Below are positions 9,511 through 59,051 of a stretch of DNA of 61,763 nt, piece after piece (within the stretch, counting starts at the first letter, position 1; each line of letters begins with the position of its first letter). The notes below the pieces were generated by a model, which saw nothing but the letters and a program-made list of their open reading frames with translations, did not search any database and had not been told where the DNA came from. Both the position numbers and the translations under genes were made by a program. This stretch comes from an uncultured Planctomycetales bacterium (GTDB lineage Bacteria > Omnitrophota > Gorgyraeia > Aquiviventales > Aquiviventaceae). The stretch lies in NCBI GenBank assembly GCA_964372775.1, contig CAYJRJ010000002.1, positions 1 through 61,763 on the forward strand, written 5' to 3'.

Positions 9511-9608
9511 TCGGGACAGTCCCATTTTTCGCTACGAGATGCGGTACGAATCGGGACAGTCCCCTTTTTCGCCACGAAGCCGATGATGCGAAAAAGGGGA
9601 CAGTCCCG
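9511..9608. repeat. three copies of the GGGACAGTCCC(C)TTTTT palindromic repeat (two direct, one inverted)
   Basis: tcgggacagtcccattttt (9511), tcgggacagtcccctttttcg (9551) and the inverted cgaaaaaggggacagtcccg (9589-9608). Confidence 0.85.
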
Positions 9609-9632: not shown

Positions 9633-10199
9633 ATGAGAACGGCCGTGCAAGAACGACGCACATCCCCCCGCGGGGCGTGTCCCTCGCGCCTCGATATCAA
9701 CGTCCTGCAGCCGCGCATGGCCACACCACCCCGCAGCGTGAACTGGAGCGAAGGCGGTTTGTGCTTGCGCCTTGAGGATGTGCTGGAGGTCCGTTCCTTG
9801 GTTCGGTTCCAGCTGAGTTCGGACGCTCGATCCGTCATGTGCACCGGTCGTGTCGCGTGGGTCATCCAGCGCCTGGATCTGCGCGACAACCCGCCGTTTC
9901 TGTTTGACGTCGGTATCGAATTCGTCGATATCCCTGCGACGTTGCGCCAGTGGCTGATCCAGCGCGGCGTGAGTTCAACCAAGGTGCCAAACGTTTCGGT
10001 GAGAACCCGCCTGCTTGAACCCACGGCCCTGCACGGGCGCACCTACGTTCCCAATGTGGTCCGCGAAACGAATCAGGCCCTGCGCTGGCATCTCATCGTC
10101 TCCGTGGAGAGCGCTCCGTGCTTTAGCGGCCGCTACGCATCCGAGCGTGACGCACTGGCGGCCTGGGCCACGTTCAAGCGTCAACGGGCCCGCCGTTAA
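9633..10199 (+). CDS. PilZ domain protein
   Basis: The RRxxxR motif (QERRTSPR) and D/NxSxxG motif (NWSEGG) are present. Confidence 0.75.
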   Translation: MRTAVQERRTSPRGACPSRLDINVLQPRMATPPRSVNWSEGGLCLRLEDVLEVRSLVRFQLSSDARSVMCTGRVAWVIQRLDLRDNPPFLFDVGIEFVDIPATLRQWLIQRGVSSTKVPNVSVRTRLLEPTALHGRTYVPNVVRETNQALRWHLIVSVESAPCFSGRYASERDALAAWATFKRQRARR

Positions 10200-10296: not shown

Positions 10297-10689
10297 ATGA
10301 TTAAGATTGAAACACAGCTCGCCATTTTCCTTGACAACCGCCCCGGCATGCTCTCGAGGACCTGCCAGGCGCTGGCGAAGGCGAACATCAACATCCTGGC
10401 CCTCTCCATCGTCGACACCGTGGATCACGCCGTGGTGCGCATGGTGGTCGACAAGACGAAAGAGGCCGAGCAGGTGCTTGTCAAGATGCATGCGATGGTG
10501 CAAGGCCGCGAAGTGATCTTCATGGATGTGCCCAATCAAGTGGCGGCGATCGCCACGATCTCCGAGCGGCTGGCCGAAGCCGGGATCAACATCGAGTACG
10601 CGTACTGCACCGCCTCCACCTCTCAGGGCGTTGGGGCGCTCGTCCTGCGCACCAACGATTTGGAAGCAACGATCAACGCCCTCAGCTAA
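10297..10689 (+). CDS. tandem ACT-domain (amino-acid-binding) protein
   Basis: Two ACT-like beta-alpha-beta-beta-alpha-beta units are present (LAIFLDNRPGMLSRTCQALAKANINI... and VPNQVAAIATISERLAEAGINI...). Confidence 0.75.
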   Translation: MIKIETQLAIFLDNRPGMLSRTCQALAKANINILALSIVDTVDHAVVRMVVDKTKEAEQVLVKMHAMVQGREVIFMDVPNQVAAIATISERLAEAGINIEYAYCTASTSQGVGALVLRTNDLEATINALS

Positions 10690-10700
10690 TCGTATACGTA

Positions 10701-10758
10701 CGGGACTGTCCCCTTTTTTGCTTCCTAGCCTCCACTTGTAAAAAAGGGGACTGTCCCG
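10701..10758. repeat. GGGACTGTCCCC-T6 hairpin (same family as 9511, 11823, 35581)
   Basis: cgggactgtcccctttttt ... aaaaaaggggactgtcccg. Confidence 0.85.
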
Positions 10759-10788
10759 ATTCGTAGAGGAAAGCAGTCCGTCTCGTAG

Positions 10789-11817
10789 ATGAAAGCCGTG
10801 ATCTTCCGTCAGCATGGCGGTCCCGATGTCCTCGAATACGCCGACGTTGCCGATCCCTCCATCGGGCCGGGAGAGATCCTCGTGCGCGTCAAGGCGTGCG
10901 CGCTCAACCATCTCGACCTGTGGATTCGTCAAGGTATTCCCGCCTATCACATCACACTGCCCCATATCTCCGGATGCGATGTGGCAGGTGTCGTGGAGCT
11001 CGTGGGGCCTGGGGTGCCGCAGATGAAGGCAGGAGATCGTGTCGTCCTCGCTCCGGGCCTTAGTTGCAGTCGGTGTGTATGGTGCCTGGCCGGACACGAC
11101 AACCTCTGTGTGTCCTATCGAATCCGCGGCGCCGGCACCGACGGCGGCTACGCCGAGCTCATCACTACGAGGGCCACCGATGTCCTCTCGATTCCTTCCA
11201 ATCTTTCTTTTGAAGAGGCGGCGGCGTTTCCTCTCGTGTTTCTCACCGCCTGGCATATGCTGGTTACACGGGCCAAGCTCCAAGCCGGAGAGACCGTGCT
11301 CGTGCAGGGGGCCGGCAGCGGAGTCGGCCATGCCGCCGTGCAAATCGCCAAGCACCTCGAGGCCACGGTCTACGCCACCGTCGGCTCAGACGCGAAGGTT
11401 GCCAAGGCCATGGCGCTGGGCGCCGATGAGGTGATCAACTACCAGCGCGAAGATGTGCTCACGCGGGTGAAGGTGCTGACGAACGAACGAGGCGTGGATG
11501 TCGTGTTTGAGCACATTGGCCAGCAGACCTGGGAGGGCAGCGTACGCGCGTTGGCGAAAAACGGCCGCCTGGTGACCTGCGGAGCCACGACAGGCCCCAG
11601 CGTGCCGTTGGATCTGCGCTACGTCTTTTCGCGGCAGCTGACCATTCTTGGGGCCCTCATGGGGACGCAAGCTGAGCTGCGCACCGTCGCACAGCTGGTG
11701 TTCAAGCGTACGCTCCTGCCGGTGGTCGATACCGTGTTCCCGCTGCGCGAGGCCCGCGCGGCGCAGGAGCGCATGCTCAATCGAGACGTGTTCGGCAAGC
11801 TCGTTCTTTCTCCCTAA
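10789..11817 (+). CDS. zinc-type alcohol dehydrogenase / quinone oxidoreductase (MDR superfamily)
   Basis: The GroES-like N-terminus carries CALNHLD. Structural-Zn Cys residues CSRCVWC and the Rossmann motif VQGAGSGVG are present. Confidence 0.85.
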   Translation: MKAVIFRQHGGPDVLEYADVADPSIGPGEILVRVKACALNHLDLWIRQGIPAYHITLPHISGCDVAGVVELVGPGVPQMKAGDRVVLAPGLSCSRCVWCLAGHDNLCVSYRIRGAGTDGGYAELITTRATDVLSIPSNLSFEEAAAFPLVFLTAWHMLVTRAKLQAGETVLVQGAGSGVGHAAVQIAKHLEATVYATVGSDAKVAKAMALGADEVINYQREDVLTRVKVLTNERGVDVVFEHIGQQTWEGSVRALAKNGRLVTCGATTGPSVPLDLRYVFSRQLTILGALMGTQAELRTVAQLVFKRTLLPVVDTVFPLREARAAQERMLNRDVFGKLVLSP

Positions 11818-11822
11818 ACGTA

Positions 11823-11868
11823 CGGGACAGTCCCTCCGCCACAGTTCTTTGGCGGAGGGACTGTCCCG
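11823..11868. repeat. perfect 18-bp GGGACAGTCCC-family hairpin, probable terminator
   Basis: cgggacagtccctccgcc (11823-11840) is the exact reverse complement of ggcggagggactgtcccg (11851-11868). Confidence 0.85.
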
Positions 11869-11882
11869 AATAAGATGGAGGC

Positions 11883-20317: not shown

Positions 20318-21113
20318 TCGCCTGACCGCGCTCGTCCAGCAGACGCTCGAGCGATGGCTGCCGAAGTCCTCGGAGCGTCCGCCGGTCGTCCATGAGGCGA
20401 TGCGCTACAGCGTGCTCGCCGGCGGCAAGCGGTTTCGGCCGCTGTTGTGCCTGGGCGGCTGCGAGGCGGCCGGTGCCCCGGCGCGCCAAGCACTCGGGGT
20501 GGCGTGCGCCGTGGAGCTCATCCACACGTACTCGCTGGTGCACGACGATCTGCCCGCGATGGACAACGCGGATGAGCGACGGGGCCAGCCCGCCTGCCAC
20601 CGAAAGTTCGGCGAGGGCAACGCCATCTTGGTCGGCGATGCGCTGCTGACGCTGGCGTTCGAGTGGCTCAGCCGAAACGGCACCACTCACGCGCCGGCCA
20701 TCATCCAGACGATCACACGCGCCTGCGGTACCATGGGATTGATCGGCGGCCAAGTGCTGGACCTGCAGATGATCAGCCAGCCGCGCAGTTCAACGGAGCA
20801 GGCCTTGGTCGATGTCGCGCAGCGCAAGACCGCCGCACTCATCACTGCCAGCGTCGTGGCGGGGGCGCTGGCCGGCGGCGGGGACGCGAAGCAAGTTCGG
20901 CTCGCCAGCCAGTACGGACAGAAGGTCGGCCTGGCGTTTCAGCTGATCGATGACGTGCATGATCAGGACGGCCTGGCGCAAGCGATGGGTATCGATGCGG
21001 CGCGCACGCGCGCCCAGCGTTTGCTGACCAGTGCGATCGACGGCCTGCGTCCGTTCGGCCGACGGGGCGATACGCTGCGGCAGCTGGCGGCCTGGCTGGG
21101 AACGACGGTATGA
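20268..21113 (+). CDS. ispA: farnesyl diphosphate synthase (polyprenyl synthetase family)
   Basis: GGKRFRP is present, with the first DDxxD in LVHDDLPAMDNADERRG and the second in QLIDDVHD. The start is uncertain, because ATG 20268 overlaps xseB by 50 nt. Confidence 0.85.
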   Translation: MTVHLKTPLHPKTKHLDRLTALVQQTLERWLPKSSERPPVVHEAMRYSVLAGGKRFRPLLCLGGCEAAGAPARQALGVACAVELIHTYSLVHDDLPAMDNADERRGQPACHRKFGEGNAILVGDALLTLAFEWLSRNGTTHAPAIIQTITRACGTMGLIGGQVLDLQMISQPRSSTEQALVDVAQRKTAALITASVVAGALAGGGDAKQVRLASQYGQKVGLAFQLIDDVHDQDGLAQAMGIDAARTRAQRLLTSAIDGLRPFGRRGDTLRQLAAWLGTTV

Positions 21114-23158
21114 AATTCCTCAAGGCGATCGAGCGTCCCGCCGACATCAAGCCACTCACCATCTCCCAGCTGGGCCTGCTCTCCCAGGAGATCCGAGAAG
21201 AGATCTTGCAGACCATTTCGCGGTTGGGCGGCCATTTGGCCTCCAGTCTCGGGGCGGTTGAGCTGTGCCTGGCACTCCACTACGTGTTTGACGCGCCCGA
21301 TGACCAGCTCATCTGGGACATGGGCTACCAGGCGTTCGCCCACAAGCTGATCACTGGGCGGCGCGACCGGTTCCGCACGCTCAAGCAGCTCGGCGGGCTC
21401 TCGGGATTCAGCAATAAAGAGGAAAGCCCCTACGACCTGTTTTCCACCGGTCACGGCGGCACCGCGCTCTCGACCGCGCTGGGCCTGGCCATGGCGCGCG
21501 ACCGAGGCGGCACCATCCACGCTGCCGAGGGAGTGTCGCGGACCGCTGGGTCCGCGACCGAGCAGGTCGACGGCTCCCGCCACGTGGTGGCGATTATCGG
21601 CGATGCCAGCCTCGGCGAAGGGATGGCGCTTGAGGCGCTCAACCACATCGGTCACATCAAGCCGAACCTGCTCGTCATCCTTAACGACAACCGGATGTCG
21701 ATCTCGCAGCCGGTGGGCGGGTTGAGCCGCTACCTCAACCGGATCATCACCAACCCGACGTACAACCGCCTGCGCGTCGACTTGACGCAGCTGATCAAGC
21801 GCCTGCCGCACGGCTCGGCGCTGGTGCGGCTCGGGCGCAAAGTCGAAGAGTCGGTCAAAGGGTTTCTGGTGCCCGGGCTGGTGTTTGAGGAGCTGGGCTT
21901 TCGCTACGTCGGACCGATCGACGGCCATGATCTGCGGGAGCTCATCACGACGTTGAAGAACGTCAAGCGGATGGAGGGGCCGATTCTCCTGCACGTCTCG
22001 ACCATCAAAGGCAAGGGGTACCGTCCGGCCGAGCAGGACCCGGAGCAATTCCACAAGATCGAGCCGTTCGACTTGGCTACCGGCCAGCTGAAGGCTGAAG
22101 GCTCAAGGCTGAAGGCGCAACCTCGTCGGAGGTCGGAGGTCGGAGGCTTGCCTCCACCCTCCACCCTCCACCCTCCAACGACGTACACGGAGGCCTTCAG
22201 CGACGAGCTCATCCGGTTGGCCGAGACGAACCGGCGCCTCATCGCCATCACCGCGGCGATGCCGGAAGGCACCGGCGTGAGCGAGTTCGCGAAACGATTC
22301 CCGCAGCGCTGCATCGACGTGGGCATGGCCGAGCAGCACGCGCTCGGTCTGGCGGCGGGCTTAGCGCGCGGCGGTTCCCGGCCCATCGTGGCGGTCTATT
22401 CGACCTTTCTCCAGCGGGCGTATGATCAGATCATGCATGAGATGTGCCTCCAGGCGCTGCCCGTCACACTGGCCATTGACCGCGCCAGCCTGGTGGGCGA
22501 GGACGGGCCGACCCACCACGGCGTCTTTGATATCGCCTACCTGCGCGTGTTGCCGAATCTTCTCGTGGCGTCGCCGAAAGATCCGGAGGAGCTGCGCGCC
22601 ATGTTGCGCTGGGCGCTCGAGCAGGATCGGCCCGTGGCCATTCGGTATGCCCGCGGCGGAATTATCTGCGGCGAACCCCTCGGCCGCTCCACGCAAATCA
22701 TCACAGGCAAGTCAGAGACGCTGCGGCCGGGCAAGGACCTGGCCCTGGTGGCCCTGGGCAGCATGGTGTACCCTGCGCTGGAGGTGGCCCAGCAACTCGC
22801 CCGCGCCGGCATTGACGCGATGGTGGTCAACGCCCGGTTCGTCAAACCGATCGACGAGGTCATGATCCGGCAGGTGGCCACACAGGTGCGGCGGATCGTG
22901 ACGCTGGAGGAGGCGCAGATCTCCGGCGGATTCGGCAGCGCAGTCTCCGAGGCGATTGATGCGCTGGGGCTGCCGGAGGTGCCGCTGCTGCGCCTCGGCC
23001 TGCCTGACGCCTTCGTTGAGCACGGCAAGCGCAGCGAGCTGTTGCAGCGTTGTCAGCTTGATCCTGAGAGCCTCACCAAACGCATCAGCCAATGGCATCA
23101 CCAACCGACGAAAGCCCCCGTTGACGAACTTCGACTCGTCACTGAATCCTCCACGTAG
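21110..23158 (+). CDS. dxs: 1-deoxy-D-xylulose-5-phosphate synthase (with two lineage-specific inserts)
   Basis: GGHLASSLG and the TPP motif GDASLGEGMALEALN are present, in the xseAB-ispA-dxs synteny. At 682 aa it is about 40-60 aa longer than typical DXS. Confidence 0.93.
   Translation: MKFLKAIERPADIKPLTISQLGLLSQEIREEILQTISRLGGHLASSLGAVELCLALHYVFDAPDDQLIWDMGYQAFAHKLITGRRDRFRTLKQLGGLSGFSNKEESPYDLFSTGHGGTALSTALGLAMARDRGGTIHAAEGVSRTAGSATEQVDGSRHVVAIIGDASLGEGMALEALNHIGHIKPNLLVILNDNRMSISQPVGGLSRYLNRIITNPTYNRLRVDLTQLIKRLPHGSALVRLGRKVEESVKGFLVPGLVFEELGFRYVGPIDGHDLRELITTLKNVKRMEGPILLHVSTIKGKGYRPAEQDPEQFHKIEPFDLATGQLKAEGSRLKAQPRRRSEVGGLPPPSTLHPPTTYTEAFSDELIRLAETNRRLIAITAAMPEGTGVSEFAKRFPQRCIDVGMAEQHALGLAAGLARGGSRPIVAVYSTFLQRAYDQIMHEMCLQALPVTLAIDRASLVGEDGPTHHGVFDIAYLRVLPNLLVASPKDPEELRAMLRWALEQDRPVAIRYARGGIICGEPLGRSTQIITGKSETLRPGKDLALVALGSMVYPALEVAQQLARAGIDAMVVNARFVKPIDEVMIRQVATQVRRIVTLEEAQISGGFGSAVSEAIDALGLPEVPLLRLGLPDAFVEHGKRSELLQRCQLDPESLTKRISQWHHQPTKAPVDELRLVTESST
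22087..22176. repeat. heptamer-periodic repeat/hairpin inside the dxs coding frame
   Basis: gctgaag gctgaag gctcaag gctgaag, then ggaggtc ggaggtc ggagg cttg cctccac cctccac cctccac cctcc. It is translated as QLKAEGSRLKAQPRRRSEVGGLPPPSTLHPP. Confidence 0.85.
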
Positions 23159-34438: not shown

Positions 34439-34756
34439 ATGAAGAAGCGTCTCGCGGTCATTACGTATGGCTGTTCCCTCGTCGGAGATCTCAGCCCTCG
34501 GCTTCGATCGAATGAAGAGCTACTCTAAGCTAAGTGTGGAAGGGTATTCTGGCTGCCACCTCGTCGGAGGTCTCCGCCTTGGGCGTCGACTCCTCCTCGG
34601 TATCAACCGTAGGTCTGGAGTGAGGATGGTCGCCAGATGAGCAAAACCATCTTTCTCCAGACCTACGGGTGTTCCCTCGTCGGAGATCTCGGGCTTCGCC
34701 CTCGACTCCTCCTCGGGATCACCCATAAGTTTGCGGTGGGGATGGTCCTAAGATGA
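34439..34756 (+). promoter_or_regulatory. miaB leader: three short ORFs (A 34439-34528, B 34512-34640, C 34637-34756) with hairpins enclosing each SD/ATG
   Basis: The last two units have a 116-nt period. ORF C repeats the MiaB N-terminus MSKTIFLQTYGC. B/C and C/miaB are joined by ATGA. Perfect stems lie at 34607-34620/34655-34668 and 34722-34734/34773-34785. Confidence 0.7.
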
Positions 34757-36300
34757 GCAAAACCATATTTCTGCAAACTTATGGGTGTCAAATGAACTCC
34801 CGGGATTCGGAGGAAGTGCTTGGGATGCTGACGGCGCAGGGCTACGAGATTGCTGAGCAGCCTGAGGCAGCCGACGTCATCCTCCTCAATACCTGCTCGG
34901 TGAGGCAGCATGCCGAGGAGCGGGCGTTCGGCAAGATGGGAGAGCTCTCCGAGCTGAAGAAGGAGAAGCCCGACCTCGTGCTGGGCATCATTGGGTGTAT
35001 GGCGAAACTGCAGCAAGAAGATATCTTTCGACGTCTGCCCCGGGTTGATCTAGTGGCCGGTCCTGCCGAATTGTACGATTTGCCGTATCTGTTAGCGGAG
35101 ATACAAGAGAAGCGCCAAAAAACAGACTTGGCTGAGGGTTATGGGTTGGGGGTTGGGGGCAAGAATGGTCTGCCCACAACCCCGAACCCCCAACCCCGAA
35201 CCAGGGTGGTCGCGGTGAGACGGCAGTACCGGCCACTTGAGAAGAAGCCGGTTGGCGATTACCGTACGCCTGGCGTCAACGCGTTCGTCACCATCATGGA
35301 AGGGTGCGACAAGGCGTGCACGTACTGCATCGTGCCCAAGACGCGCGGGCAGGAGATCTCGCGCCCCGCCGAGGAGATTCTTGAAGAGCTCAACCGCCTC
35401 GTTGAGGCTGGCTACCAGGACATCACGCTGCTGGGTCAAAACGTCAACTCCTACGGCAAGCGGTTTCCGGATGGCTCAGGCTACAAGGGTCCGCTTGGCC
35501 GACTGCGTCTCTTAGAGGAAGAGCCTGACTCGCTGCTCGATTTTCCGGCGCTCTTACGGCGCATCGACGCTTCGCTACGAAATGGGGACAGTCCCCTTTT
35601 TCCGAAGGGAAAAAGGGGACTGTCCCCATTACGGGTGCGGTTTACGACGAGCCATCCGTTTGACGCCAACGAGCGGCTGTTTGAGGCGATGCGCGACTGC
35701 GACTCGGTCTGCGAGTGGCTGCATTTGCCGGTGCAGTCCGGCTCCAACCGCATCCTGCGGGCGATGCGCCGGGGCTACACCGTCGAGGCTTACTTGAACA
35801 AGCTCGAGCAGCTGCGCCGCTGCGTGCCGGAGATCAGTCTCTCGACGGACATCATTGTCGGCTTCCCAGGAGAGACCGACGAAGACTTCCAGGCGACGGT
35901 GCGGCTGCTCGAGGAAGTCCGCTACGACATCGCCTACATCTTTAAGTACTCGCCACGGCCGGGGACGGATGCGGCCGCGCGCGAGGATGATGTGCCCCAA
36001 GAGGTGAAAGAAGAGCGCAACCAAATACTCCTCGCGCTGCACGAACAGATCCTGCGCGAGCTGCTGGCCGCGTTCGTCGGCCGCGAGGTCGAGCTCCTCA
36101 TCGAAGGGCCTGGCAAGATGCCCGGCCAATGGTTCGGCCGCACCCGCGGCAACTACGGCGTCATTGTGGAAAGCGACAGCCCGATCATCGGAGCGCGGCT
36201 GGATGTGACCATTGCCCGCGCCGGCTCGCGTACGCTGTTCGGCGCTCTACCCGCAGGTGAAATTTTTGTTGGACAGGGTTCACCTGTTGCGCGACAATAA
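34753..36300 (+). CDS. miaB: tRNA-i6A37 methylthiotransferase MiaB (with two in-frame palindrome-encoded inserts)
   Basis: TYGCQMN, the radical-SAM motif CDKACTYCIVP and a TRAM-like C-terminus are present, with miaA downstream. At 515 aa it is longer than the usual ~440-450 aa. Confidence 0.9.
   Translation: MSKTIFLQTYGCQMNSRDSEEVLGMLTAQGYEIAEQPEAADVILLNTCSVRQHAEERAFGKMGELSELKKEKPDLVLGIIGCMAKLQQEDIFRRLPRVDLVAGPAELYDLPYLLAEIQEKRQKTDLAEGYGLGVGGKNGLPTTPNPQPRTRVVAVRRQYRPLEKKPVGDYRTPGVNAFVTIMEGCDKACTYCIVPKTRGQEISRPAEEILEELNRLVEAGYQDITLLGQNVNSYGKRFPDGSGYKGPLGRLRLLEEEPDSLLDFPALLRRIDASLRNGDSPLFPKGKRGLSPLRVRFTTSHPFDANERLFEAMRDCDSVCEWLHLPVQSGSNRILRAMRRGYTVEAYLNKLEQLRRCVPEISLSTDIIVGFPGETDEDFQATVRLLEEVRYDIAYIFKYSPRPGTDAAAREDDVPQEVKEERNQILLALHEQILRELLAAFVGREVELLIEGPGKMPGQWFGRTRGNYGVIVESDSPIIGARLDVTIARAGSRTLFGALPAGEIFVGQGSPVARQ
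35136..35202. repeat. heptamer-periodic hairpin (GGGTTGG / CCCCRAA) inside the miaB frame
   Basis: gggttat gggttgg gggttgg ggg c aagaatggtct gcccacaa ccccgaa cccccaa ccccgaa cc. It encodes GYGLGVGGKNGLPTTPNPQPRT. Confidence 0.8.
35581..35630. repeat. perfect 23-bp GGGACAGTCCCC-family palindrome inside the miaB frame
   Basis: aatggggacagtcccctttttcc-gaag-ggaaaaaggggactgtccccatt. It encodes NGDSPLFPKGKRGLSPL between RRIDAS and RVRFTTSHP. Confidence 0.9.
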
Positions 36301-40402: not shown

Positions 40403-42280
40403 ATGGCTAAGGTCATTGGGATCGATCTCGGAACGTCCAACTCAGCCTGTGCGGTGATGGAGCAGGGGCGGCCGGCGATCATCCCGTCAGCGGAAGGGAC
40501 AAGCGTCGGCGGCAAGGCGTTTCCGTCCTACGTGGCGTTCACGAAGGACGGGCAGCTCTTGATCGGTGAGCCGGCCCGTCGGCAAGCGGCCACCAATCCG
40601 GAAGGGACGGTGCAGGCGGCCAAGCGGAAGATGGGCACCGACCATGTCTATCGGATCAGCGGCAAGGAGTACACGCCGCAGCAGATCTCGGCGTTCATCC
40701 TGCAGAAGGTCAAGCGGGATGCCGAAGCTCACCTGGGTGAGCCGGTCAAAGAGGTGGTCATCACCGTGCCCGCGTATTTCAACGACAACCAGCGCCAGGC
40801 CACGAAAGATGCGGGGGCCATCGCTGGCTTGGAGGTGCTGCGCATCATCAATGAGCCCACCGCCGCGTGTCTGGCCTACGGGCTCGACAAGGCGGGCAAA
40901 GAGCAGAAGATCCTCGTATTTGATCTGGGTGGCGGCACGCTTGATGTGACCATCATGGACATGGCGCAGGGGGTCTTTGAGGTGAAGTCCACCAGCGGCG
41001 ATACGCAGCTGGGCGGCACCGACATGGATCTGGCGTTGGTGGACTACATCGCCGGTGAGTTCAGGAAGGAAACCGGCATTGACGTGCGCCAGGACAAGAT
41101 GGCGGCCCAGCGCATCCGCGAAGCGGTGGAGAAGGCGAAGATCGAGCTCTCCAACGTGCTGGAGACGGATCTGAACCTGCCGTTTATCACTGCGGATGCC
41201 TCTGGCCCCAAGCACCTGACGACGAAGTTGACCCGCGCGACGCTGGAACGGTTGATCGAGCCGATCATCGGCCGCTGCCGCGCTCCGGTGGAGCGCGCGC
41301 TCTCGGATGCCAAGCTGCGTCCGTCGGACATTGACCGGATCATCCTGGTGGGCGGGCCGACCCGCATGCCCATCGTCCAGAAGTTCGTGGAAGAGGCGGT
41401 CGGCAAGAAGGTGGAGCGCGGCGTGGATCCGATGGAATGTGTCGCCATGGGTGCCGCCATCCAAGCCGGCATCATCAAGGGGGATGTGAAAGACATCCTG
41501 CTCTTGGATGTCACACCGCTCTCCCTGGGGATCGAGACCATGGGCGGCATCTTCACCAAGCTCATCGAGCGCAACACGACGATTCCGACGAAAAAGAGCA
41601 ACGTCTTTTCCACGGCGGCCGACAACCAGCCGGCCGTGACGGTGAGCGTCTCTCAGGGCGAGCGGCCCATGGCGGCGGACAACACGCGCCTGGGCCAGTT
41701 TAACCTCGAGGGCATCCCGCCAGCACCCCGCGGCGTGCCGCAGATCGAGGTGACGTTCGACATCGACGCCAACGGCATCGTGCACGTCTCGGCGAAGGAC
41801 CTGGGAACCGGCAAGGAGCAGTCGATCAAGATCAGCGCGCCGCAGAAGCTCGCGAAGGATGAGATCGAGAAGATGGTCAAGCAGGCCGAGCAGTTCGCCG
41901 ACGACGACAAGAAGCGCCGCGAGCTGGCCGAGGCCAAGAATCAGGCGGACCAGCTCGTCTACTCGACGGAGAAGAGCCTCAAGGATCTCGGCGACAAAGT
42001 GAGCCAGTCCGACCGGCTCGCCATCGAGCAGGCCGCGCGCGATCTCAAGGACGCCATCAAGTCGGACGACGCCGAGAAGATCACGCGAGGCACCGACGCG
42101 CTGACGCAAGCGTCGCACAAGCTGGCGGAAGAGGTGTACAAGAAAGCCCAGGCGCAGGGGGCGGGGGGCAAGGGGCGTGGGGCGGGGGAAACCGCCCAAG
42201 AAGAACCGGCAGAGAAGGGCCGCGGGAAGGACGACAAGGTCGTCGACGCCGAGTTCAAAGTGCAGGACGACAAAAAGTGA
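40403..42280 (+). CDS. dnaK: molecular chaperone DnaK (Hsp70)
   Basis: [19 protein letters not shown] and the remaining Hsp70 signatures are present. Confidence 0.97.
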
Positions 42281-44222: not shown

Positions 44223-44345
44223 AGCACCAAATTCCAAATCCCAAATTCCAAATAAATTCCAAGCGCCAAGCACCAAACGCACGGTGTTTGAAATTTGGAA
44301 CTTGGTGCTTGTTTGGTGCTTTGGATTTGGTGCTTGGAATTTGAA
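44222..44345. repeat. long heptamer-periodic hairpin (TTCCAAA/CACCAAG family), 'empty' copy
   Basis: aagcacc aaattcc aaatccc aaattcc aaataaattcc aagcgcc aagcacc aaacgc -acgg- tgtttga aatttgg aacttgg tgcttgt ttggtgc tttggat ttggtgc ttggaat ttgaa. Confidence 0.85.
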
Positions 44346-58591: not shown

Positions 58592-58630
58592 ATTCCAAGC
58601 ACCAAGTTCCAAATTCCAAATAAGCACCAA
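58591..58630. repeat. left arm of TTCCAAA/CACCAAG-family inverted repeat flanking the four-helix-bundle gene
   Basis: aattcca agcacca agttcca aattcca aataagcaccaa. It runs into the ATG at 58630. Confidence 0.85.
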
Positions 58631-58995
58631 TGGCCAATATTCCAAACACAAGTCGTCGCTATGATCTTGAGGAGAGAACCCTTAGGTTCGCTCAAAACAC
58701 CATCAAACTATGCCAGTTATTACCTCAGCATGTCGTGAACCGTGAGCTTGTCAGTCAGCTTGTCCGAGCAAGCGGTTCGGTAGGCGCCAATTACCGAGAA
58801 GCAAACGAAGCTTTAAGCAAGAAAGACTTTGGACATCGCATCAAGATTGCGCGCAAGGAGGCGAAAGAGGCTTACTATTGGCTGCAGTTGCTGGAGGGAG
58901 CCAACCCGAGCACGAGCGACGAGACAACGAGGTTGCTTCAGGAGGCTCTTGAACTGAGAAAGATTTTGTCTACGATCGCTGATCGTGCTTCGTAG
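58630..58995 (+). CDS. four-helix-bundle protein of the '23S rRNA intervening sequence protein' family (TIGR02436-like)
   Basis: YDLEERTLRFA...I.L...LP........QL.RA..S...N..EA....SKKDF.....IA.KE..E..YWL.L pattern. It is visibly more AT-rich than its neighbours. Confidence 0.8.
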   Translation: MANIPNTSRRYDLEERTLRFAQNTIKLCQLLPQHVVNRELVSQLVRASGSVGANYREANEALSKKDFGHRIKIARKEAKEAYYWLQLLEGANPSTSDETTRLLQEALELRKILSTIADRAS

Positions 58996-59051
58996 TTTGG
59001 TGCTTGGTGCTTGGGGTTTATTTGGTGCTTGGGATTTGGTACTTGGGATTT
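58996..59051. repeat. right arm of the inverted repeat flanking the four-helix-bundle gene
   Basis: tttggtgcttggtgcttggggtttatttggtgcttgggatttggtacttgggattt. It is an imperfect complement of the left arm and of the 44222-44345 family. Confidence 0.85.

Follow-up and report, generated by a model that had tools for sequence, protein, structure and literature searches.

Hairpin Repeats Carried in Frame at Two Sites of miaB in an Omnitrophota Clade: Probable Tolerated, Translated Repeat DNA in Permissive Loops

The window analyzed here, a stretch of 61,763 nt from a member of the phylum Omnitrophota, contains an intact methylthiotransferase gene, miaB (34753–36300, forward strand; 515 codons plus stop), that bears two segments of palindromic DNA, both in frame and free of stop codons, as a preliminary description of this sequence had reported. 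Its product combines UPF0004 (residues 5–103), Radical_SAM (180–386) and TRAM (441–498) domains by Pfam with two cysteine triads, which is the architecture that defines MiaB, and none of the six cluster cysteines (Cys12, 48, 82, 185, 189, and 192) is missing. The product matches the structurally solved MiaB of B. uniformis (7MJV) at an E-value of 9e-98. A gene caller places the start at M14, giving a protein of 502 aa; we favor the start at 34753 because the conserved TYGCQMN motif supports it. The genes miaB, miaA and hflX lie closely spaced in the same direction, and no second miaB was found within the 61,763-nt window. Judged from its sequence, the gene looks functional.

The first of the two segments (site 1, S1) occupies a variable stretch of 93 nt (35119–35211, forward strand) flanked by the conserved motifs ...EKRQ and AV.R..RPL, in the linker joining the N-terminal domain to the radical-SAM domain. 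Within it lies a heptamer-periodic hairpin (35129–35203), recognized by its inverted repeats, its RNA fold and the period-7 array of its right arm. The left arm comprises about four GGGTTGG-type units and the right arm about four CCCCRAA units. In its full extent the inverted repeat pairs 35129–35161 with 35171–35203 (33-nt arms, 79% complementarity), and its best core pairs 35137–35159 with 35180–35202 (23 nt, 87%); the loop measures 9–20 nt overall, corresponding to 35160–35179 when the 23-nt arms are taken. As RNA, the hairpin has a folding energy of −48.9 kcal/mol (z −3.9). Its G-rich strand reads GGG-TTAT-GGG-TT-GGGGG-TT-GGGGG, with four G-tracts, and the units found in relatives (TCAGA, GCGTACA and others) are mostly not G-rich. 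The hairpin codes for G129–T150, and the peptide GYGLGVGGKNGLPTTPNPQPRT given in the preliminary description is the one we read; its placement between UPF0004 and the radical-SAM part also agrees with the domain calls and with the AF2 model, where residues 130–148 (pLDDT <50) form a predicted coil between helix 104–129 and strand 176–181. Logan contigs from four runs cross S1 and its flanks with 0 differences.

The second segment (site 2, S2) is a variable stretch of 63 nt (35569–35631, forward strand), encoding ASLR followed by NGDSPLFPKGKRGLSPL, that stands in for a six-codon loop of the RRTNAP type between a helix of the radical-SAM barrel and the RVRFTTSHP strand. The alignment and the AF2 model concur with its earlier placement directly ahead of this conserved block. 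It contains a perfect palindrome (35581–35630), ATGGGGACAGTCCCCTTTTTCC...GGAAAAAGGGGACTGTCCCCAT, with 23-bp arms and a 4-nt loop, GAAG, which continues imperfectly out to 35578–35633, has an RNA folding energy of −52.9 kcal/mol (z −10.4) and codes for N277–L293 (NGDSPLFPKGKRGLSPL). This peptide is almost identical whichever strand is read. In the AF2 model the segment forms a loop from helix 264–277 to strand 294–299, with pLDDT below 50 at residues 284–288, and TIM-barrel topology suggests that the loop should point away from the clusters. The palindrome includes a mini-hairpin, GGGGACAGTCCCC, followed by TTTTT (35584–35596, forward strand), and its mirror (35615–35627, reverse strand), both resembling intrinsic terminators by consensus match only; on either strand of S2 a scan with the terminator consensus picks out a 5-bp stem with a T5 run, which is not in itself evidence of function. 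A search of RNA runs found none that contains this locus. Logan contigs from three runs cross S2 and its flanks with 0 differences. An apparent 1-nt deletion at 35604, seen at 90% likeness, was gone at 96%, and the signal therefore stems from other copies of the repeat. The perfection of the palindrome would mean that it is either young or recently corrected.

The preliminary description had attributed the excess length of this MiaB to the two palindromes, which is correct in part. When compared with 80 MiaB orthologues from many other phyla, a distant outgroup (identity ≤45%) retrieved with the pattern LGQNVNSY, the S1 region measures 54 residues against a median of 25 and the S2 region 27 against a median of 12; the 80 orthologues carry neither segment, and no homologous peptide in unrelated lineages speaks for an ancestral origin. 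However, there is a third component that is not palindromic. Residues 243–260 (SGYKGPLGRLRLLEEEPDS; 35479–35532, forward strand) belong to a region of 22 residues here against a median of 3 in the outgroup, which is conserved in the clade (21 aa in nearly all members, 35–44 in a few) and predicted to be partly helical, with a helix at 246–256 in the AF2 model. B. uniformis MiaB is gapped at S1, at S2 and at residues 243–260. Set against both orthologues and structure, as had been suggested, the two palindromic inserts thus fall at gaps relative to 7MJV and in low-pLDDT loops of the model.

Repeats of these kinds abound elsewhere in the window. Strong hairpins number 19, as opposed to 1–3 in shuffled sequence; period-7 arrays number 13, as opposed to 0–3 at lags of 5, 6, 8, 9, or 10; and GGGGACAGTCCCC, with at most one mismatch, occurs 8 times where 0.14 would be expected. 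It had been claimed that both miaB palindromes recur in intergenic DNA of the window, and this is true of one of them. The family of the S2 palindrome, GGGACAGTCCCC, has three more copies: two of the form GGGACWGTCCCC-T5...A5-GGGGACWGTCCC, at 9552–9608 (−38.8 kcal/mol, upstream of a gene at 9633, with a half copy at ~9513–9525) and at 10701–10758 (between genes for an ACT-domain protein and a dehydrogenase), and one with GGGACAGTCCC arms and a different interior at 11821–11870 (−43.8 kcal/mol). The S1 sequence, in contrast, has no further copy in the 62-kb window, to which this census is limited; S1 resembles about 10 intergenic heptamer hairpins there in architecture only, as the unit sequences of the heptamer arrays differ among loci. 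Look-alikes of the S1 hairpin in the source metagenomes show a depth ratio that varies from run to run and are therefore probably the DNA of other organisms. In two runs from groundwater, the depth of TCAGA arrays is ~70–100 times that of single-copy DNA. The window's dxs gene also contains in-frame heptamer arrays, within a domain linker, and the phenomenon is therefore not special to miaB. At 58594–59050, inverted heptamer arms enclose a PF05635 gene. A scan of genome contigs with GGGACWGTCCCCTTTTT returned 120 matches from many phyla against ~140 expected by chance in 596 Gb. The GGGACWGTCCCCTTTTT motif resembles a bidirectional terminator.

Relatives of the gene, retrieved with a degenerate DNA pattern specific to the clade, place these observations in an evolutionary context. 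Among 120 homologues, indels of at least 3 aa are confined to four internal sites, and among ~100 related Omnitrophota genes S1, S2 and two rarer sites are the sole internal places of variable length. The best explanation is that S1 and S2 are two of four places in this clade's MiaB that tolerate extra residues. Hairpin DNA is found at all four, in the form of four-unit heptamer arrays, array hairpins, GGGGWCAGWCCCC pairs and MITE-like elements in both orientations. The baseline among relatives is 9 nt at S1 (encoding RVM), where 77 distinct DNA states were recorded, and 18 nt at S2, with 58 distinct states. The insert-free alleles for which a search of close relatives had been proposed do exist: of 67 such relatives, S1 is filled in 55 and insert-free in 12, and S2 is filled in 35 and insert-free in 32. 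On the gene tree of these 67 rows the state changed between filled and empty at least 9 times at S1 and at least 16 times at S2, and a single clade of S2-empty alleles is rejected (AU test, p 6e-6). One sister pair consists of a gene filled at both sites (L084) and one empty at both (L089). No target-site duplication appears at S2 in filled/empty pairs; instead, the 18-nt loop has been replaced, and the ancestral six-codon loop did not simply receive an insertion, as had been supposed. A MITE is defined by terminal inverted repeats, a target-site duplication and descent from an IS; the S2 element, with inverted ends but no duplication, accordingly falls outside that definition.

The contents of the two sites are diverse. 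Inserts at S1 in relatives are mainly four-unit arrays, with four perfect units in L097, L131, and L137. Pairs of GGGGACAGTCCCC occupy S2 in the DNA of at least six relatives, and pairs of GGGGTCAGACCCC fill S2 of L084 as well as S1 of L142 and L106. One MITE-like element is stop-free in both orientations (L169 vs. L148, L099 vs. L098), and L085, L081, L103, and L140 have composite or nested inserts. Further copies of the elements that relatives carry at S1 and S2 lie at other places on the same contigs, the S2 mini-palindromes being rare in the flanks outside miaB. Peptides encoded at any one site diverge widely, reading frames differ as well (GDSP vs. GQSP), and no conserved insert peptide was found among the relatives. 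Near-identical strains carry identical inserts. The runs examined gave no sign of polymorphism between filled and empty states, though contigs can reveal presence but not absence.

What is conserved is the reading frame. It is kept at S1 in 90 of 92 informative relatives, with inserts of 0–156 nt, and at S2 in all 68 of 68 (18–306 nt). The consequence of losing a unit can be seen in L151, which matches L176 along 900 nt without a mismatch except that one 7-nt unit is gone, and whose frame is broken. The array of L143 measures 32 nt, one 7-nt unit short of 39, and L171 has an unrelated frameshift, so that miaB is also broken away from the arrays. Logan contigs, which hide rare variants, show no mixture of unit numbers within samples around L176. 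Of ~38 contigs that terminate inside miaB, 15 terminate within an insert.

The arms of the hairpins change together. Hairpins of 93 nt in L086, L094, L118, and L297 are orthologues of the S1 hairpin, with equal length, prefix and loop and with altered arms. In this 93-nt class (n = 5), 11 of 33 pairs are altered on both sides, compared with at most 4 in slid controls. In a 45-nt class at S2 (n = 9), 96% of cells are paired and 5 of 12 pairs are altered on both sides, a number matched by 0 of 500 shuffles and compared with at most 1 in slid controls. Both sets are small, and the repeats that make up one arm cannot be treated as independent. Since both arms change together, the hairpin persists as the peptide drifts. 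Mismatches within stems (12 G·U, 31 A·C, 54 other) do not favor G·U on the sense strand, and these counts show no sign of selection at the mRNA level through tolerance of sense-strand G·U. Recent transfer of S1 alleles with their flanks was considered and set aside, flank identity being barely above background. The orthology of S1 in four relatives, like the GGGGACAGTCCCC pairs in at least six, contradicts the idea that these are private, recent insertions of this genome, and a plain picture of inserted selfish elements fails as well, for it does not predict that pairing is retained through two-sided changes.

Several known systems offer points of comparison. The Rickettsia palindromic elements (RPEs) are palindromic repeats of ~100–150 bp found in frame inside housekeeping genes; their families also occur between genes, and copies within genes are read through and sited where the fold permits (Ogata et al., 2000, 2002, summarized in PMC10969869). 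The miaB segments resemble RPEs in being in-frame, stop-free palindromic repeats that fit the fold (predicted loops, gaps relative to 7MJV), the S2 family also has intergenic copies in the window, and the RPE precedent raised in the preliminary description is sound as an analogy of read-through in a permissive loop. However, the elements here are shorter (50 and ~75 nt) and lack a peptide conserved across the family; they comprise two unrelated classes, one defined by heptamer architecture rather than by sequence; and, in a host from Omnitrophota, the same two sites are filled throughout the clade by hairpins whose arms co-evolve in place. The STRR-type repeats of Nostoc and the GGGAATC repeats of Xanthomonas are four-unit heptamers in inverted pairs that are depleted in coding sequence (Rehm et al., 2015; PMC4692102); the GGACCGG repeats of Geobacter metallireducens are described within and between genes (Aklujkar et al., 2009; PMC2700814). 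Our arrays share with these a 7-nt unit that is preferentially repeated four times, inverted pairs that converge and can form stem-loops, and a position mostly between genes of the same direction. The published repeats and the S1 left arm also have in common G-rich units with a total of four G-tracts, and occasional in-gene copies are common to Geobacter and to miaB and dxs here. Nevertheless, the published repeats have one dominant unit per genome and are mainly non-coding, whereas here units vary by locus and the miaB and dxs copies are coding; the available parts of those reports contain no equivalent of the orthologous in-place series or the frameshift allele. REP/REPIN sequences and MITEs are similar in being short, dispersed junction palindromes with inverted pairing, a terminator-like shape and hairpins targeted by further insertions, and differ in that here a copy sits in frame inside an ORF and has no target-site duplication. 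The PF05635 ("23S rRNA intervening-sequence protein") cassette of the window shares inverted heptamer arms with the miaB hairpin, which instead has a 9–20-nt loop and no gene inside. A literature search found no paper on palindromic repeats in Omnitrophota.

At these positions related genomes have different hairpins or no hairpin, and we therefore regard this as a Rickettsia-like case rather than a new feature of the protein. We think it likely that the segments are repeat DNA that MiaB tolerates in permissive loops, that is translated and maintains itself, and that behaves in the manner of RPEs. S1 would represent the pairing of a four-unit heptamer array with its inverted copy, a class usually intergenic in this genome, and S2 a family of paired GGGGWCAGWCCCC mini-palindromes with its three intergenic copies also in the window. 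Conservation of the frame suggests that the inserts are translated; they would be transcribed and read as disordered Gly/Pro-rich loops that leave the enzyme unharmed, presumably without a function of their own. Most would be long-standing residents, inherited and evolving in place, occasionally replaced, nested into or lost. Their persistence may be owed to arm-to-arm correction through template switching at replication, a process known from quasipalindromes, to a ratchet in which a needed gene allows only exact in-frame excision, or to resident hairpins that draw in further hairpin elements. The price would be that slippage by a single 7-nt unit destroys the frame.

High occupancy and two-arm changes could equally reflect selection for structure, and the hairpins may instead be cis-acting structures (a pause, a terminator, an RNase III site or protein-binding DNA) that tune miaB and miaA-hflX, with the peptide as a by-product. 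Such a role is possible, though we consider it unlikely. A perfect duplex of 23 bp is long enough to serve as an RNase III substrate, and the S2 palindrome provides one; the RNA folds are very stable, a terminator-like mini-hairpin with T5 lies on either strand, the same sites are highly occupied throughout the clade, pairing is preserved as the peptide drifts, and the three genes are close and co-directional. Against this, 12 of 67 relatives have no insert at S1 and 32 of the same 67 have none at S2, and the structures found at one site are unrelated in type and size, ranging from stems of 13 bp to elements of 300 nt that lie in either orientation. The same repeat classes also occupy ordinary intergenic junctions and the dxs linker, stem mismatches show none of the sense-strand G·U preference, and in quasipalindromes template switching alone can yield two-sided changes without selection (PMC7202029). 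It is a more speculative extension, to which we would give a small chance, that a dedicated process or selection writes and keeps hairpins at transcribed junctions, including domain linkers, making miaB dual-coding, with tuned expression of miaB-miaA-hflX or 7-nt switching of ms2i6A modification as the outcome; the four-helix-bundle PF05635 proteins, encoded within hairpins that have similar arms, might then service the heptamers. If that were true, nucleic-acid structure, and not the peptide, would be the conserved trait of the miaB segments.

Recent independent insertion by an active, site-seeking mobile system (a MITE, a REPIN, an RPE-like element or a heptamer system linked to PF05635) would account for the perfect S2 palindrome, whose ends, TACGAAT...GGGACWGTCCCC-T5, are common to the three intergenic copies, and for the MITE-like elements present at S2 in both orientations and also at S1. 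The shared GGGGTCAGACCCC pairs of S2 (L084) and S1 (L142, L106), the composite inserts and the PF05635 gene within heptamer arms in the same window fit this account as well. We nonetheless find it doubtful, given that neither a target-site duplication nor a transposase was seen, and given an S1 hairpin that is imperfect (79–87%) and orthologous to those of relatives, identical inserts in near-identical strains and no sign of filled/empty polymorphism in contigs that reveal presence only. Phase variation, in which gain or loss of one 7-nt unit toggles miaB and with it the ms2i6A modification of tRNA, finds its examples in L151, one unit short of L176 and frameshifted, in the array of L143 and in the perfect four-unit arrays of several relatives. 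We judge it improbable: out-of-frame alleles are just 2 of 92, the arrays are short and mostly imperfect (the window's own included), unit numbers are not mixed within a sample as far as contigs that hide rare variants can show, and L171 demonstrates that miaB breaks elsewhere too. Palindromic and repetitive DNA can lead assemblers astray, and contigs from many relatives are interrupted at these positions; even so, an assembly artefact, or an ordinary ancestral MiaB peptide that is not repeat DNA, is scarcely credible. Error-free contigs from three or four separate runs span the inserts and their flanks, and the segments are absent both from the 80 orthologues of other phyla and from the insert-free alleles within the clade, so that this reading is refuted.

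If the segments are indeed tolerated, translated repeat DNA, the ~100 orthologous genes constitute a rare comparative series on the fate of hairpin repeats in a needed gene: confined to a few permissive loops, with pairing kept, peptides drifting, hairpins swapped and breakage by occasional slippage. The picture of "selfish DNA in genes" drawn from Rickettsia would thereby be widened to take in Omnitrophota as well as the heptamer repeats, which are poorly understood. There is also a warning for the annotation of such genomes, in that length differences or "novel loops" of conserved enzymes may be repeat DNA, and assemblies break there. Finally, the series provides a system for asking whether hairpins within genes are neutral, correct themselves or have a regulatory role.

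The miaB gene (34753-36300, plus strand) is an open reading frame whose 515-aa product carries UPF0004, radical-SAM and TRAM domains, matches the solved MiaB of B. uniformis (7MJV; E 9e-98) and has all six cluster cysteines (C12, C48, C82 and C185, C189, C192). Within it lie two palindromes, confirmed at the exact positions assigned to them in the preliminary description. At site 1 (S1), arms at 35129-35161 and 35171-35203 are 79% complementary (87% in the core, 35137-35159 and 35180-35202), with approximately four GGGTTGG-type units facing their complements; as RNA, the hairpin is predicted to fold at -48.9 kcal/mol (z -3.9). At site 2 (S2), the palindrome at 35581-35630 is perfect, with 23-bp arms around a GAAG loop (-52.9 kcal/mol, z -10.4), and either half consists of a 5-bp mini-hairpin followed by T5, which a consensus scan classes as terminator-like on both strands. 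The two strands of this palindrome (35577-35633) encode near-identical peptides, NGDSPLFPKGKRGLSP and NGDSPLFPFGKRGLSP (89% identity in tblastn). Contigs of four separate sequencing runs span S1 and its flanks without a single difference, as do those of three runs for S2, and an assembly artefact is thereby excluded for both.

When the protein is aligned with 7MJV, three segments fall in gaps (residues 121-174, 243-260 and 277-290), and these three regions hold 54, 22 and 27 residues against medians of 25, 3 and 12 in 80 orthologues from many phyla. On these alignments, S1 and S2 are extras relative to the MiaB of other phyla. The preliminary description had attributed all of the excess length to the two palindromes; both do contribute, but it missed the middle segment (35479-35532, plus strand), which is clade-conserved, non-palindromic and partly helical in the model. 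In the AlphaFold2 model (mean pLDDT 71.7), residues 130-148 and 284-288 are coil with pLDDT <50. S1 is placed after the N-terminal domain's last helix (104-129) and before the first radical-SAM strand (176-181), and S2 occupies an alpha-to-beta loop from helix 264-277 to strand 294-299 that, by TIM-barrel topology, would face away from the active-site end. Upstream, the miaB leader and first 12 codons are tandemly duplicated (34560-34790), each copy forming a hairpin around the ribosome-binding site and start codon (17/19 and 16/18 pairs) with compensating differences between the copies.

The nearest proteins, 439-579 aa long, are MiaB of Omnitrophota. Among 120 homologues, indels of at least 3 aa are confined to four internal sites, which follow residues 126 (S1), 255-259 (S3), 276 (S2) and 472 (S4), and hairpin-forming DNA is present at all four. 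Approximately 100 relatives were compared at the DNA level. S1 has a 9-nt baseline (RVM) and occurs in 77 distinct DNA states, most commonly 39-nt heptamer arrays of four units or 81- or 93-nt hairpins of the array-loop-inverted-array type, with varied units, alongside GGGGTCAGACCCC pairs and MITE-like elements. S2 has a baseline of 18 nt (RRTNAP-type) and two classes of insert, namely paired GGGGWCAGWCCCC-type mini-palindromes (GGGGACAGTCCCC, GGGGTCAGACCCC, GGGATCAGATCCC, GGTGTCAGGCACC) and elements of 110-300 nt, of which two families are found in both orientations (loci L169 vs. L148 and L099 vs. L098). Hairpin DNA at S3 was seen in L083, L095, L136 and L169, and at S4, in a loop of the TRAM domain, in L097, L118, L160 and L175 (e.g., CCTGCCCGCCCC...GGGGCAGGCGGGG). 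The reading frame stays intact and free of stops in 68/68 informative S2 alleles and in 90/92 S1 alleles; this argues that the S1 and S2 hairpins would be translated with miaB.

L151 matches L176 with no mismatch over 900 nt, yet has lost one GGTCAGA unit and with it the frame, and the 32-nt array of L143, one unit below the usual 39 nt, is likewise out of frame. Loss of a unit is a cost to miaB. Mixed unit numbers within one sample are not visible in contig data, and we regard a role of the arrays in phase variation as very improbable. Away from the repeat sites, miaB of L171 (locus positions 10535-11576) carries a frame-breaking deletion just past the CxxxCxxC motif, reflecting either pseudogenization or misassembly. 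Four called MiaB proteins (P0002, P0013, P0021 and P0059) are 50-80 residues longer at the C-terminus (...RRPDGGGEVRRRGGAG...GDRLLRLDAGLP...), and the extension resembles the beginning of miaA in a different reading frame, as if the miaB stop had been lost or shifted.

On a tree of 67 genes, built with the insert columns left out, changes between filled and empty states number at least 9 at S1 and at least 16 at S2, and a single clade of S2-empty alleles is rejected (p 6e-6). The insert-free alleles that the preliminary description had proposed looking for thus exist at both sites. Inserts are identical among near-identical strains, and the sister genes L084 and L089 are unlike at both S1 and S2. 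Filled S2 alleles are replacements, since all start with ASLR, ASIR or ASTR and lack the RRTNAP codons; no target duplication was seen between filled and empty S2 alleles. For S1 alleles, the identity of the flanks does not point to recent transfer.

Once in place, the hairpins appear to change on both arms together. The window's 93-nt S1 hairpin can be aligned gap-free with those of L086, L094, L118 and L297, all of them having a common prefix, length and loop (AAGAATGGTCTG, AACAACGGTCTG, AAAAGCAGTCAA, AAGAGCGACCAG), while their arm units vary (GTTGGGG/CCCCAAC, GWTCAGG/CCCCGAA, GCTCKAG/CCTYSAG); in this small set of five sequences, 11/33 pairs in the common register show two-sided changes, and no more than 4 do so when the partner is slid. 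The 81-nt TCAGA class fits the same frame and has the TCAG core in common. The 45-nt S2 class, also small (nine sequences alike in position, length and flanks), is 96% paired and shows two-sided changes in 5/12 pairs, reached by 0/500 shuffles and at most 1 in slid controls, and a reading as two mini-hairpins is about equally supported. Its peptide shifts along with the hairpin (GQTPVGVRP, DQIPGGIRS, CQAPDGARH). Such hairpins might have a selected structural or regulatory role, which we consider unlikely. Stem mismatches (12 sense-strand G·U, 31 A·C, 54 others) show no G·U excess, an argument against the mRNA fold being under simple selection. Template switching during replication is known to perfect imperfect inverted repeats at quasipalindromes (PMC7202029) and would explain the two-sided changes more economically.

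Comparable repeats pervade the window, which contains 19 strong hairpins (1-3 in shuffles) and 13 period-7 arrays (0-3 at lags 5, 6, 8, 9, and 10), almost all between co-directional genes; the unit of the heptamer hairpins changes at almost every locus (GCGTAAC, CACAGAT, GGAGTGC, GTTCCAT, TGGAAGT, CGGAATT and others). Both miaB palindromes had been said to recur in intergenic DNA; this stands for S2, whose GGGACWGTCCCC family has three more copies, all intergenic (9552-9608, 10701-10758 and 11821-11870) and sharing its outer TACGAAT motif, but not for S1, whose sequence is found only once in the window. In dxs (21110-23158), in-frame four-unit arrays at 22083-22122 and 22146-22187 (GCTGAAG and CCTCCAC units) lengthen the domain I-II linker by approximately 22 residues compared with E. 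coli DXS (2O1S); residues 135-154 form another extra segment, of approximately 20 aa. Also observed were a G-rich period-7 array (42157-42189) near the 3' end of a 625-codon gene (40403-42280) and a PF05635 (“23S rRNA intervening-sequence protein”) gene (58630-58995, E 5e-19) flanked by inverted CCAAGCA/CCAAATT-type arrays (58594-59050) with arms built like those of S1. A hairpin without a gene at 44225-44337 has units like those arms.

Beyond the window, the miaB element is repeated elsewhere on its own contig in L081, L113, L100/L126/L135 and L168, and in two groundwater runs TCAGA-type arrays, set in many different flanks, are covered approximately 70-100 times as deeply as single-copy sequence; S2 mini-palindromes are rare in the flanks of relatives. 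Some 38 contigs end inside miaB, 15 of them in an S1 or S2 insert, which is what assembly breaks at repeats would produce. GGGTTxGGGG/CCCCGAACCCC hairpins resembling S1, with other flanks, occur in sequencing runs X1-X3 and probably belong to other organisms, since their depth relative to the window's contig differs between runs. Directly upstream of miaB, contigs of L297, L299, P0016 and P0004 carry a serine recombinase, a PIN/PrlF toxin-antitoxin pair or a GIY-YIG gene, which suggests that mobile DNA integrates at the miaB 5' end.

The interpretation first offered, an in-frame colonization like that by Rickettsia palindromic elements, is partly supported. Those elements are a functional precedent (PMC10969869) and the miaB elements resemble them in working, but differ in size and in conserved peptide and are therefore not members. 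Four-unit heptamer arrays with inverted pairs are described from Xanthomonas and Nostoc (PMC4692102), and four-unit arrays “within genes” from Geobacter metallireducens (PMC2700814). S1 fits this architecture, down to the four G-tracts of its left arm, whereas most relatives' S1 units are not G-rich. We think it likely that S1 and S2 are tolerated, translated hairpin repeats in permissive loops, mostly old and self-keeping, at clade-wide hot spots. The value of the case lies in its comparative series of relatives rather than in a new principle.
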